Shown piece after piece: positions 58,392 through 63,898 of a stretch of 64,000 bases of DNA. The translations under genes and the position numbers were made by a program. The DNA comes from a virus. Its lineage: Duplodnaviria > Caudoviricetes. Where the stretch lies: IMG/VR virus record IMGVR_UViG_3300033068_001847, positions 96,001-160,000 of that record. One strand, given 5' to 3'. The notes under the pieces were generated by a model. It made no database searches. It saw nothing but the letters and a program-made list of their open reading frames with translations, and was not told the origin of the DNA. Each line of letters begins with the position of its first letter. The first letter of the stretch is position 1.

Positions 58392-59292
58392 ATATTATTT
58401 AAAAAGTTATCGGGAGAAACGTGGATTTAACGTTGAAAATTATTTAGAGAAAAAGATTATAGCAATTAATGATTTTTTTTCTAAAAATAATTTAGATTCT
58501 GCCGTAATTGGAATATCAGGAGGTGTAGATAGTGCATTAGTTCTTTATTTATTAAAAAGAGCTTCTGAAGAACATAACTCACCAATCAGACAAATTATGC
58601 CGATATCTATTCCTATACGTAATGTATCAGGTGTAACATCCCAAAATAAAGCTTCATTTTACGCTGACTTAGTGATGGAAAGTGCAGGATATACTTATTA
58701 TGAAGTACCATTGGAAGAAGCTTATAACTCAATTATAAAATCATCATGTGATATCCATGCTAATGAAAATGATGCATGGGTTAAAGGTCAGATGGCTTCT
58801 GTATTAAGAACACCAGTATTATATTTTCATGCAGCTATATTACAGGGATCAGGATATAAGTCAATAGTTGTAGGGACAACAAATAGAGATGAAGGTGCTT
58901 ATATAGGTTTTTTTGGTAAAGCATCAGATGCAATGGTTGATTTACAACCCATAGCTGATCTACATAAATCAGAAGTTTATCAATTAGCTAAACATTTAGG
59001 TGTCCCTGAAAGAATTATTAATAGAAAACCTCAAGGAGATGTTTGGGATCGTAGAAATGATGAAGAAATGATAGGAGCTTCATATGATATGATAGAGTTA
59101 TTTTTATTAATGGAAGATATAGAACCATTTCAGGATTTTTTTTTAATAGATGAAAATGAAAGAAATTTGTTTGATAATTCTTTCAATGCAATCATGGAAC
59201 TTCACTATATAAATAAACATAAATACGAAGTAGGTAATCCAGCACATTTTATTGATGTGATGCAACGTACCGTAAAAGGAGGATGGAAATAA
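58381..59292 (+). CDS. nadE: NH3-dependent NAD+ synthetase
   Basis: IGISGGVDSAL, VGTTNRDE...GFFGK..D, PIADLHKSEV, DEE.IG.SY; no glutaminase domain. Confidence 0.9.
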   Translation: MNIEYYLKSYREKRGFNVENYLEKKIIAINDFFSKNNLDSAVIGISGGVDSALVLYLLKRASEEHNSPIRQIMPISIPIRNVSGVTSQNKASFYADLVMESAGYTYYEVPLEEAYNSIIKSSCDIHANENDAWVKGQMASVLRTPVLYFHAAILQGSGYKSIVVGTTNRDEGAYIGFFGKASDAMVDLQPIADLHKSEVYQLAKHLGVPERIINRKPQGDVWDRRNDEEMIGASYDMIELFLLMEDIEPFQDFFLIDENERNLFDNSFNAIMELHYINKHKYEVGNPAHFIDVMQRTVKGGWK

Positions 59293-59483
59293 TGGGTTGG
59301 AAATCAACAATAGATATAACCAGAAAAACCGCAATTGATTTGATATTATCAAGATTAGACAGAAGTATCTATGAAGAAATGACAGATGAAGAGTTGGGTG
59401 ATATGGTTGAAAATTTAGGTTATGGTGATGATACCGATCTACCATATTATGGTTATAATTTTAATGTAACTGATGATGTTTGA
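59283..59483 (+). CDS. Hypothetical protein
   Basis: 66-aa ORF. Confidence 0.5.
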   Translation: MEIMGWKSTIDITRKTAIDLILSRLDRSIYEEMTDEELGDMVENLGYGDDTDLPYYGYNFNVTDDV

Positions 59484-59796
59484 ATTCAAAACAAAATATA
59501 AAGAATTAGACGATAGATCTAAGTTTGCAAACAAGGTGTGTCAATTATTACTTAATAAACATCAATTTTCAACATTCGGTGATATTTCTGATTTAGTTGA
59601 AGAGATTAAAGAAATTAAAGAATATTTTGAGGAACATGTAGATAATATTCACGAACTGGTTGATAGTGAAATTCCTCTTTTCGCTTTATATGAGTTAAAA
59701 AATAATGGTGCTGAAAATTATGGATTTACCGAAGAAGAATATAGTGGTGCTATGGTCAATTGTTTATTAGCTTGTAAAATATTTTATAATATATGA
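59473..59796 (+). CDS. Hypothetical protein
   Basis: 107-aa ORF. Confidence 0.55.
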   Translation: MMFEFKTKYKELDDRSKFANKVCQLLLNKHQFSTFGDISDLVEEIKEIKEYFEEHVDNIHELVDSEIPLFALYELKNNGAENYGFTEEEYSGAMVNCLLACKIFYNI

Positions 59797-59822
59797 AGTT
59801 AATTATTGCTGTAAATAATTAA
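59793..59822 (+). pseudogene. Orphaned original DHFR N-terminus (MKLIIAVNN*)
   Basis: ATG overlaps the upstream TGA; the peptide matches LIVAVNN at the start of the DHFR gene ~850 bp downstream. Confidence 0.75.
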
Positions 59823-59849
59823 TTACTATTTTCCATACTATTTATTAGT

Positions 59850-60632
59850 ATGGAAAATAAAATAGGGATATATCAAATTATTAATGTTTTAAATAATGAT
59901 CGTTACATTGGTAGTTCAAAAAATATAACAAAAAGATTTTATGAACATAAAAGAACACTTGATTTAAATAAACACCATTCTACTATATTACAACGAGCTT
60001 GGAATAAATATGGTAAAGATAAATTTCGTTTTGAATATATAGTAGAATGTAACGTTCAGGATTTAATTCTTTTAGAAGATCATTATCTTAAGTTATATAA
60101 ACCTAAATATAATATTTTTAAAAATGCAACTTCTTCACGTCTTGGAATACCACATACAAAAGAAACCAAATTAAAAATCAGTCAAGCTAATAAAGGAAAG
60201 AAATTATCGCAAGAACATAAAATTAAATTTACCAGAAAAGGAATTAAAGTTTCAACTTATACGAAAAAGCTAATTAGCGATAAAAATACTGGTAAAAAAC
60301 GGACTGAAGAAGTAAAACAGAAATTAAGTCAAATTAGAAAAAAAGAAGCTGAATCTCCTTTCGTTTTAAAACGACTAAAAGAAATTGGTGCGAAAGGACG
60401 TGAAAATCGAGTATATAAAACAGGTTGGACAGTATCTGAAGAAACGAGGGAAAAAATGATATTAAGTCGATATAAAATTGCGGTAGTATCGTTTGATTTG
60501 AATTATAAAGAACTAGATACTTTTTCTTCTGTAAAAGAAGCTGCTTTACATTATGGAATTGATGCAAATGGTATAAGAAGGAAATTAGATAAAGATAAAA
60601 CATATAAAAACATGATATGGAAGAAGAAATAA
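59850..60632 (+). mobile_element. GIY-YIG homing endonuclease with NUMOD3/NUMOD1 repeats
   Basis: GIYQI...YIGSS...R..EH, YNI; HTKETKLKIS and SEETREKM repeats; late motif 59839-45. Confidence 0.9.
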
Positions 60633-61018
60633 ATACCAAACTTGGTCTCATTGTTGCCGTAAATAACTTCGGATATATCGGGTTGGATGGTAAAATTCCT
60701 TGGTATTGTAGAGAAGATCTTAAACATTTTAAAGCTCTTACATTGAACCAAAGTTTGATGGTAGGTAGAACAACCTTCGAACAGTTACCACCTCTTAGAG
60801 ATCGGGAAATCATCGTTGTTGGTCAAGGATATCATACACTAGATGAAGCTCTAGCTTTAAAACCAGATTGGGTGATAGGTGGGGCTAAATTATATACGTC
60901 AACAATACATTTATGTGATGAAATTCATGTCAGTAGAATTAATAATGATCTAATTGGAGATACAATATTTACGATCCCCGAAGATTATAAAGGTAAAATA
61001 TTTGAATATAAATTTTAA
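60617..61018 (+). CDS. folA: Dihydrofolate reductase
   Basis: LIVAV...IG..GKIPW...EDLKHFK..T...MVGRTTFE.LPPL..R, VIGGA.LY, GDT.F. Confidence 0.92.
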   Translation: MEEEINTKLGLIVAVNNFGYIGLDGKIPWYCREDLKHFKALTLNQSLMVGRTTFEQLPPLRDREIIVVGQGYHTLDEALALKPDWVIGGAKLYTSTIHLCDEIHVSRINNDLIGDTIFTIPEDYKGKIFEYKF

Positions 61019-61021
61019 GTT

Positions 61022-61723
61022 ATGAGTCCGTTTGAAAAAGGATTAATTGAAAATAGTAATATCATTAACGCTTATCATTTTGGTAGCAGAGTGTACGGTA
61101 GTGATACCATAAATTCAGATTATGATTATGTATTAGTAGTTGATGAATTCTTTGTTGCACCTGATAAGAATATTTGTGTGTATACAATACACCAATTTCA
61201 AACTCTTTTAAATAATTGTGATATTCAAATATTGGAATGTTTTTTTATACCGAATAAATTCATTGTTAAAGAAAAACACAGATTTTGTTTGAATTTAGAT
61301 AAACAAAAACTTAGAACAAGTATCTCAACTATTGCTTCAAACAGCTATGTCAAGGGGAAAAAAAAGGTCACGGTTATGAATGACTATGATTTACATGCTG
61401 GATTGAAATCCGTATTTCATTCTTTACGGATATTAAACTTTGGTATTCAAATCGCTGAACACGGTAAAATTATAGATTATGGTGCAATGAATTATGTACT
61501 TTGGGATCTTTTTAAATTATCTGAACAATACCAAACAGTAGAGTTATGGGAAGTTATTAATACGAAATACAAATCAGTTTTCAACCAATTAAGCAGTTTG
61601 TTCAAGCAGCTATGTCCAAAAGACTTAACAGAAAAAAATAAGAAACTTAATTTAATTAAGATTCTCAAAAAATATAATGTTGAAAATGTTGATTTAGTGG
61701 ATGAGTTATTAACTGTATTGTAA
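61022..61723 (+). CDS. Pol-beta-family nucleotidyltransferase
   Basis: FGSRVYG...SDYDYV. Confidence 0.75.
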   Translation: MSPFEKGLIENSNIINAYHFGSRVYGSDTINSDYDYVLVVDEFFVAPDKNICVYTIHQFQTLLNNCDIQILECFFIPNKFIVKEKHRFCLNLDKQKLRTSISTIASNSYVKGKKKVTVMNDYDLHAGLKSVFHSLRILNFGIQIAEHGKIIDYGAMNYVLWDLFKLSEQYQTVELWEVINTKYKSVFNQLSSLFKQLCPKDLTEKNKKLNLIKILKKYNVENVDLVDELLTVL

Positions 61724-62457
61724 TGAAATTTATAATTGAAACCAAAAAAGGTGAAGTAGTTCATGACTTTTCATTTACGTTGATTCAACGAATTAATGCT
61801 CATAACGATTGGTTACTTAATCAATCTGACTTAATTAAATATAAGTTAACTGACGGTGAAATGTTACCTGATTTCATACCTGTAGGATCAGTAGATTTTG
61901 TAGTGAAGTATATTCGGAAATATTATGGTATAACACCAGAACCTGTAAACATTCCTGATGTATTAAATCAGGATAGATTTTTAGAGAGAAAAGTCTATAT
62001 AGATAAATTTACTAATGTACTATCAACTACCTCACCATTATTTATAAAAAGTATTAATAAAATTAAAGGCTTTACTGGATTTGTTAGTAAAGTATCTCTA
62101 ATGGATATTCCCTCAGAAAGTTTTCTGTGTTCTGAAGTAATAGATATTGATTCTGAGTGGAGAGGGTTTGTCCATAAAAATGAGTTAATTGATATTAAAA
62201 ATTATTCTGGTGATCCATTTATATTTCCCAATGTAGATACAGTAAAGGAGATGGTGAAGGAATATGTAAATGCTCCAGTAGCATATACTATTGATGTAGC
62301 TATTAATAGTAAAACAGGTAATACTGTTCTTATTGAATGTCATGATTTCTTTTCATGCGGTTTATATGGTTTTGATTATCACAAATATCCTTGGATGTTA
62401 TCACAATGGTATTATGAATTTTTGAGGAAAAACAAACAAAATATATTGCAAATATAA
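61723..62457 (+). CDS. ATP-grasp protein (R2K/DUF4343-like)
   Basis: PVGSVDF, FIKS..K.F.G, SEWR.F, YTIDV...LIEC.DFFSCGLYG. Confidence 0.7.
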   Translation: MKFIIETKKGEVVHDFSFTLIQRINAHNDWLLNQSDLIKYKLTDGEMLPDFIPVGSVDFVVKYIRKYYGITPEPVNIPDVLNQDRFLERKVYIDKFTNVLSTTSPLFIKSINKIKGFTGFVSKVSLMDIPSESFLCSEVIDIDSEWRGFVHKNELIDIKNYSGDPFIFPNVDTVKEMVKEYVNAPVAYTIDVAINSKTGNTVLIECHDFFSCGLYGFDYHKYPWMLSQWYYEFLRKNKQNILQI

Positions 62458-63658: not shown

Positions 63659-63898
63659 TTGATTACTTTAAAGGAATATTATAAAAATAACATCAGTACA
63701 TTAAAAGGTATAAGTAATACAAGTACATATAAACCGATCATTCAGTATAGTCTTGATGGTAAATTTATTAAAGAGTGGTGTAGTACTAAGAGTGTTTGTG
63801 AAGAATTAGGTTTTAATAATAGTTCAATATCTTCTAATTTAATAGGTAGAAGTAAAACATCCAATGGTTTTATTTGGAAATATAAAAATAAAATATGA
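63659..63898 (+). CDS. NUMOD1-domain protein, probably a homing-endonuclease remnant
   Basis: KPIIQYSLDGKFIKEW...GFIWKY; no nuclease domain; TTG start. Confidence 0.6.
   Translation: MITLKEYYKNNISTLKGISNTSTYKPIIQYSLDGKFIKEWCSTKSVCEELGFNNSSISSNLIGRSKTSNGFIWKYKNKI

Follow-up and report, generated by a model that had tools for sequence, protein, structure and literature searches.

A probable intron-less homing endonuclease cassette within the 5' end of a phage dihydrofolate reductase gene

From the perspective of their persistence, homing endonuclease genes (HEGs) located in coding sequences are thought to survive through introns or inteins and, rarely, by splitting the host protein into pieces that reassemble. 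The nearest precedent for the locus discussed here is the MobA/gene 60 element of phage T4, reportedly characterised by Bonocora et al. (2011) as a mobile cassette in the gene for the topoisomerase large subunit. Friedrich et al. (2007) are said to have described mobE inserted in nrdA of the Aeromonas phage Aeh1, and Belle et al. (2002) reportedly dealt with SegF-type 'intron-less homing' by free-standing seg and mob genes. Phage 21 and e14, which integrate in icd, and the phages that integrate in tRNA genes bring with them a diverged duplicate of the gene end that they displace. In the MobA/gene 60 element, the downstream frame starts out of frame inside the 3' end of the HEG, with an overlap of 8-32 nucleotides (nt), and carries an N-terminal extension and a segment called HomR, with 67-81% DNA identity to the target (Manning & Atkins, 10.1101/2022.08.31.505936). 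The subject of this work is a dihydrofolate reductase (DHFR) gene with a GIY-YIG HEG at its 5' end, located at 59793-61018 of a 64,000-nt stretch (hereafter the window) that represents positions 96,001 to 160,000 of the IMG/VR record IMGVR_UViG_3300033068_001847. The whole record (184 kb, from an uncultured virus, with an estimated completeness of about half) contains a single DHFR and a single GIY-YIG gene.

With a probability of roughly 85%, this locus is an intron-less mobile HEG cassette inside the 5' end of the DHFR gene, in which a new start codon and a copy of the first β-strand (strand A) keep the gene whole. According to the open reading frame (ORF) listing and a reading of 59200-61800, the order on the plus strand is stub, HEG and DHFR. 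The stub (59793-59822, MKLIIAVNN*) would be the vestige of the first nine resident DHFR codons, and the TAA that closes it (59820-59822) is the first triplet of the inserted element. The ATG of the stub (59793) overlaps the TGA (59794-59796) of an upstream ORF of 107 amino acids (aa) without a Pfam family (59473-59796, plus strand), so that a putative ATGA translation-coupling signal of the resident DHFR is still in place. The HEG (59850-60632, 260 aa, C-terminal end NMIWKKK) begins 27 nt after the stub stop, and the DHFR (60617-61018, 133 aa; DHFR_1, PF00186, E 9e-24), whose N-terminal sequence is MEEEINTKLGLIVAVNNFGYIG, starts 16 nt inside the 3' end of the HEG, ahead of the HEG stop. Its ATG is made of the last base of an Ile codon and two bases of a Trp codon of the HEG (ATA-TGG, 60615-60620). 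This element-borne start opens a short linker, MEEEINTK (60617-60640), followed by the replacement copy of the DHFR N-terminus, LGLIVAVNN (60641-60667), which corresponds to a HomR, supplies strand A and presents a Leu at the position of the native Met1; 16 of 21 nt are identical between this second copy and codons 3-9 of the stub. The cassette would thus extend from the TAA at 59820 to about 60667, and its 3' end would consist of the new ATG, the linker and its own strand A, which continues in frame into the body of the resident gene. The original prediction had described the stub, its coupling to the upstream gene, the HEG, the DHFR start inside it and the duplicated strand, and all these statements about the sequence hold when the ORFs and the DNA are read again.

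Judged by its sequence, the stub is the real start of a DHFR gene and not a chance reading frame. A family-consensus pattern for its nine residues has a single match among the six translated frames of the 64-kb window (at 59793) and none in 200 shuffled windows, and this match is placed exactly where a translationally coupled DHFR start is expected. The stub is undecayed, with all nine residues agreeing with the family consensus. The seven nearest DHFRs, drawn from a collection of 5.8 billion proteins (50-66% identity), start with MKLIVAVNN, MKLIIAKNN, MKLIIAINA, MNLIVAVNN or similar sequences, none of them presents an extension, and no endonuclease was found ahead of DHFR in their retrievable loci. 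Some 70 further family members from IMG/VR (whose loci are given L-numbers here) almost all begin M-[KR]-[AG]-I-[IVL]-A-V-N-N-L-G-[FY]-I-G; among the cassette-free ones an N-terminal extension is present in almost none and an ME start in none. The expectation that endonuclease-free relatives read the stub continuously with the body of DHFR was thereby borne out. In the nearest HEG-free relative, L007, the DNA of the first codons matches the stub at 22 of 27 nt and the replacement copy at 13 of 27, by our own codon count. Across the family, the first ~42 nt of the DHFR gene are well conserved in their DNA and the upstream DNA is not; a conserved stretch of this type is the kind of site that homing enzymes favour.

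Some cassette-free loci present distinctive features of their own. The DHFR of L180 (2495 onward) begins MNK-L-KAIIAINK, with a three-residue extension and a Leu at the Met1 position, which could be the footprint of a lost cassette ('hit and run'), and that of L237 (~450-530) has a 25-residue extension with a Phe at the Met1 position. In L005, L181 and L195, a tRNA-like sequence, judged by eye, lies directly upstream of DHFR. The neighbourhood of the gene is highly mosaic in general.

An alternative explanation of the window would be that the DHFR was inactivated by the insertion, so that the MEEE.. frame is not translated or yields an inactive product. The lack of a recognisable Shine-Dalgarno sequence before the ATG at 60617 and the short length of the protein (133 aa) speak for this, although many genes of the window also lack a Shine-Dalgarno sequence and present overlapping stop/start coupling, and HEG-free relatives are equally short (120-136 aa). 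The open frame and the DHFR motifs are moreover kept in all seven carrier lineages known, the window included, despite HEGs that are only 33-67% identical to each other. Family alignments show W29, D34, G50, T53 and I87-G89 as invariant residues, and the VGRTTFE of the window contains R51, so that the Trp, Asp, GR.T and IGG motifs are all kept in the window DHFR. An AlphaFold model built with the family alignment is confidently of the DHFR type (mean pLDDT of 87), with residues 1-5 disordered and strand A formed by residues 10-15, that is, by the replacement copy. A dead DHFR is in consequence very improbable. If the cassette reading is right, the window DHFR would be made as one full-length polypeptide with a short disordered N-terminal tail, for which no splicing is needed. 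The only in-frame start upstream of strand A is the ATG at 60617, the next ones being TTG/ATG at residues 47/48, and under the cassette reading the N-terminus of the protein would be MEEEINTK and not MKLIIAVNNFGY. In Escherichia coli DHFR, residues of strand A (Ile5, Ala6/7) form part of the active site, and for this reason the element must supply this strand.

The endonuclease itself is, by its domains, an I-TevI-like GIY-YIG homing endonuclease with a modular NUMOD DNA-binding tail: Pfam searches return GIY-YIG (PF01541, E 2.6e-11), NUMOD3 (E 1.6e-8) and NUMOD1 (E 4.6e-5). When it is aligned to the catalytic domain of I-TevI (1MK0/1LN0), the tyrosines of the GIY and YIG motifs and the equivalents of Arg27, His31 and Glu75 are present, His40 falls at an HH pair, and the catalytic columns are invariant among nine relatives. 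Further downstream in the window, a 79-aa ORF (63659-63898, plus strand) that ends in NGFIWKYKNKI contains only a NUMOD-like DNA-binding module (PF22083, E 1.4e-6); it resembles a homing endonuclease tail without a nuclease domain, and may be a remnant or a stand-alone binder.

Since GIY-YIG enzymes of this type are classically encoded in introns, the HEG might belong to a group I intron that splices itself, like the I-TevI gene in T4 td; the stub and the body of DHFR would then be joined in the RNA, and the MEEE.. frame would be incidental. The naming of relatives as 'group I intron endonuclease' in several database sources, together with the intact and translationally coupled stub, would agree with this explanation. 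Rfam searches, however, give no match to Intron_gpI or to any other ribozyme, with E values of up to 10 admitted for the window and of up to 1 for the six sister loci, and there are stop codons between the HEG and the host frames, so that no ribozyme or intein was found around it. Nor could a ribozyme core be accommodated beyond the ORF, given the 27 nt upstream of the HEG and the overlap of the HEG with the DHFR start, and an intron would leave unexplained why an in-frame ATG, an open linker and a second strand A occur in seven of seven lineages. Splicing is accordingly regarded as highly unlikely. Two ways of joining the stub to a downstream frame during translation were considered as well and rejected. 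A read-through fusion of stub and HEG is conceivable from the frame that they share in the window, with one TAA between them, but the frames differ in L013, where a TAA ends both the HEG and the DHFR; a translational bypass from the stub to DHFR would have to span some 800 nt and would leave the second copy of the strand without a purpose.

The cassette reading gains most of its weight from its recurrence in other phages. All the full-length relatives of the HEG with examined loci (32-41% identity to the window HEG) lie directly before a DHFR and overlap it, and HEGs that have only the catalytic domain in common, or a different C-terminus, are not linked to DHFR. Six further carrier lineages can be distinguished: L009 (41% identity), L010-12, L013, L093, L173 and L176/177. 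Together with the window, all seven place the DHFR ATG inside an ATATGG of the HEG (HEG/DHFR overlap of 16-34 nt) and begin DHFR with ME.. and a Leu at the native Met1 position. A TAA-closed stub of 10-11 codons precedes the HEG in five of the six other lineages (MRAILAMNNLG*, MKAILAFNNLG*, MKAIIAVNNLW*, MRGIITINNLG* and MKAIIAVNNLG*), and in these five the left end of the insertion is conserved as GG(G/T)-TAATTTT[TA]GG. In L173, the database call of the HEG starts 15 nt too early (368-382); the hairpin described below and the family alignment place its start at the ATG of MENCG.. (383). Because the HEGs of the carriers, which are 33-67% identical to each other, are about as diverged as their DHFRs, the association between both genes appears to be old and to have moved between genomes. 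Searches of cultured and GenBank phages with tblastn, using two cassette HEGs, did not find the cassette (identities of at most 39%), and in LR756500.1, the one full-length GenBank match checked, DHFR is not adjacent.

Cassette-free counterparts are available for two of the carriers. L185 has an upstream gene in common with L093 (81% aa identity) and a sister DHFR. On the left side of this pair, 109 of the 150 upstream nt and 27 of the 33 nt of the stub are identical, and homology stops at GGGTA|A; the right side shows none until the replacement copy, in which 8 of 18 nt match in codons 1-6 and 15 of 15 in codons 7-11, with 106 of 117 in the sequence that follows. In the second pair, the DHFR of L235 starts with MRAILAMNNLG, identical to the stub of L010, and matches L010 at 30 of 33 nt in the stub, 21 of 33 in the second copy and 104 of 120 in the gene body; by our own codon count, replacement codons 1-7 of L010 match the native allele at 10 of 21 nt. 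The gene bodies of both pairs are 87-91% identical in nucleotides. From these comparisons it follows that the stub is the resident 5' end, that the second copy belongs to the element, and that the end of the element lies inside codons 6-11.

Phylogenetic evidence points in the same direction. In a tree of 75 DHFRs (quick IQ-TREE search), the seven carriers need seven state changes, at least six of them forced by well-supported branches; a carrier and a cassette-free tip are joined on a starred branch in L010-L235, L093-L185 and L176-L196, and L173 groups with three cassette-free tips. This scatter of the carriers, which have no flanking genes in common, argues for repeated independent invasions. 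The replacement copy follows the host clade, with K-L-I in one and [KR]-A-I in the other, which suggests, by analogy with what has been reported for the HomR of MobA, that it may occasionally be re-copied from the resident allele. The original proposal of an intron-less invasion of the coding sequence is therefore upheld, since no intron was found, the layout recurs in other lineages, and natural empty sites exist for two of them.

As regards the mechanism, the endonuclease would cut cassette-free DHFR alleles within the conserved first ~40 nt during mixed infection, after which double-strand-break repair would bring in a copy of the cassette, with homology arms provided by the stub on the left and by the gene body on the right. 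Immunity of the carrier would come from the target being incomplete at both junctions: the stub junction would lack its downstream half, and the replacement copy would differ in its first codons and in its upstream context. I-TevI is known to bind close to the site of insertion and to make its cut some 23-25 bp upstream; a similar spacing here would place the cut in the recoded codons, which would fit the need for a target in two parts. An I-TevI-style CNNNG cleavage motif at a fixed place was not found by eye in the native 5' ends. Regarding the duplication of strand A, Parker et al. (1999) reportedly found that T4 intron homing with limited exon homology leads to illegitimate repair that creates duplications, and by analogy such repair could be its origin.

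Several observations weigh against this reading and account for the doubt that is attached to it. The left junction of the window (after codon 9, TAATTAC) is unlike the conserved one (after codon 11, TAATTTT[TA]GG), and L009 presents no clear stub and at most a four-codon vestige. Homologous repair would have to work with a left arm of ~30 nt within DHFR, a short length for this purpose. The replacement copy of L013 is the same as its stub for 29 nt (identical from codon 3), so that recoding of the strand is not a general basis of immunity; a replacement copy made resistant to cleavage through recoding, as the original prediction had it, is plausible from the low match of the first replacement codons in L093 and L010. 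Finally, no HEG-free relative more than 70% identical to the window phage was found in GenBank or in the IMG/VR scans: megablast against GenBank phages returned no close relatives, and neither did IMG/VR scans for which the DHFR, the upstream protein of 107 aa and the downstream one of 233 aa served as queries. For this reason, the edges of the insertion in the window rest on relatives of 50-66% identity and on the analogy with sister lineages, and presence or absence of the cassette at one site is seen as a polymorphism in the pairs L093/L185 and L010/L235, the window lineage having only distant empty relatives (50-66%).

The deviating junction of the window also lends some substance to a different explanation, according to which the locus is the scar of a one-off illegitimate recombination that brought in a free-standing HEG together with a foreign DHFR 5' end, the stub being neutral debris and the whole not a mobile unit. 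The window HEG is the most divergent of the set (33-41% identity), and no polymorphic empty site was found for its lineage. Besides, ordinary free-standing GIY-YIG genes do occur between thyA and an intact DHFR in other phages. In L238 (1791-2516) and L203 (1543-2502), an intact, unextended DHFR is preceded, just upstream, by another kind of GIY-YIG HEG, which has the zinc finger and DNA-binding domain of I-TevI; that of L238 sits between thymidylate synthase and DHFR, and L203 has a second HEG just downstream of DHFR. This is an ordinary intergenic arrangement, possibly the precursor state of the cassette. Against a scar, the window has in common with all six other lineages the ATG in ATATGG, the Leu at the old Met1 and the hairpin over the HEG AUG, as well as the TAA of the stub. 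As the stub is undecayed and the carriers are polyphyletic on the DHFR tree, a scar is considered unlikely, and the mobile cassette is preferred.

The start of the endonuclease gene carries a signal of its own. A perfect hairpin of 14 bp with the loop UUUAU (59827-59859, plus strand; -16.9 kcal/mol, z -4.8 in a single-sequence fold) holds the HEG AUG (59850-59852) in its 3' arm, and an equivalent hairpin over the HEG AUG is present in all six other lineages, seven of seven in total, with z values from -1.9 to -6.1. The arms co-vary among lineages, as AUGGAAAAU pairs with AUUUUCCAU, AUGGAGAAU with AUUCUCCAU and AUGAAA with UUUCAU. The evidence for these hairpins comes from single-sequence folds, and the consensus fold obtained from an automatic alignment is weak because of register shifts. 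Hairpins at the start region are a known brake on I-TevI, segB and mobE (PMC2988022), and the one described here is probably a translational brake on the endonuclease, whose translation would be held down by the occlusion of its start codon. The sequence TATTTATTA (window 59841-59849), just before the HEG ATG, forms the hairpin loop yet is invariant in six lineages (window, L010, L013, L093, L173 and L176); it might belong to a promoter that gives a near-leaderless transcript, or else enhance translation as an AU-rich sequence. Sigma-70-type promoters in the element are not above the shuffled expectation and no terminator was found in it, so the suggestion that DHFR is now read from a late promoter of the element found no support, the promoter-like sites being no more frequent than by chance. 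When 59780-59880 is folded to minimum free energy, a second hairpin, all A/U and with 11 pairs (59797-59824), spans the greater part of the stub; it may be due to chance in such AT-rich DNA.

A bolder and rather doubtful proposal is that these loci represent an undescribed and widespread class of homing elements that settle in the first codons of a conserved gene without intron, intein or splitting of the protein, since they replace its start and its first structural element, and that the retained stub is possibly functional. The stub may act as a coupled upstream mini-ORF that gates translation of the endonuclease: its TAA lies 4 nt ahead of the hairpin, which would be opened by ribosomes that come to a stop there. 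It may equally provide the left arm of homology, and the enzyme may possibly use it as an operator-like half-site. If true, the stub and the replacement copy could recombine with each other, which would remove the element exactly and make the invasion reversible.

Set against the survival of HEGs through introns, inteins or split proteins, the cassette represents a simpler route, by which it enters a few codons into the gene and a replacement start codon and first strand allow one intact enzyme still to be made. Because independent insertions have led to this route in at least seven phage lineages, it appears to be a strategy and not an accident. The natural pairs of filled and empty alleles are usable for mapping the target of a new I-TevI-like enzyme. 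For annotation, caution is advised, as a short stub and an extended DHFR start would normally be mis-called. A description of a DHFR-targeting cassette of this kind was not found in the searchable literature, whose coverage leaves out most subscription journals.

As for the systems with which this locus can be compared, the likeness to MobA/gene 60 is the closest. Both are intron-less HEGs in a coding sequence, with the downstream start in the 3' end of the HEG, an extension and a HomR, and both present repeated independent insertions at one site and closely related genomes with empty sites. They differ in the enzyme, which is HNH in MobA and GIY-YIG in the DHFR cassette, and in the products, since MobA/gene 60 leads to two functional polypeptides with a conserved C-terminal extension, whereas a vestige of 9-11 codons, without an extension, and a whole enzyme downstream result here. 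The parental region is deleted and replaced in the T4 element, while it is kept at DHFR and the target is thus duplicated; T4's cassette for translational bypass, 50 nt long, has no counterpart at DHFR, which has no coding gap.

In Aeh1, a free-standing HEG likewise lies within a gene of nucleotide metabolism, and sequence contributed by the element keeps the function without intron or intein; there, however, two large fragments must assemble (Crona et al. 2011, PMC3045599), whereas here a single polypeptide is restored by replacement of the 5' end. As in mobE, a hairpin sequesters the translation start of the HEG (PMC2988022). I-TevI in the T4 td gene presents a homologous catalytic domain, a modular NUMOD tail and, as its target, a conserved stretch of a thymidylate-cycle gene, and its translation is also restrained by an RNA hairpin (PMC2988022); in contrast, no ribozyme is present at DHFR, and the rescue takes place at the level of DNA and translation and not by splicing. 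Similarly to SegF-type homing, a free-standing GIY-YIG gene is inherited together with the markers on its flanks, and the allele of the carrier is not the same as that of the target (PMC2988022). The seg and mob genes normally lie between genes, however, while the DHFR cassette lies within a coding sequence and must rebuild its reading frame. Finally, as with phage 21 and e14, the gene stays whole and the displaced native end is left as a remnant, although those elements use site-specific recombinases and replace 3' ends, whereas the DHFR cassette is driven by its endonuclease and replaces the 5' end together with the start codon.

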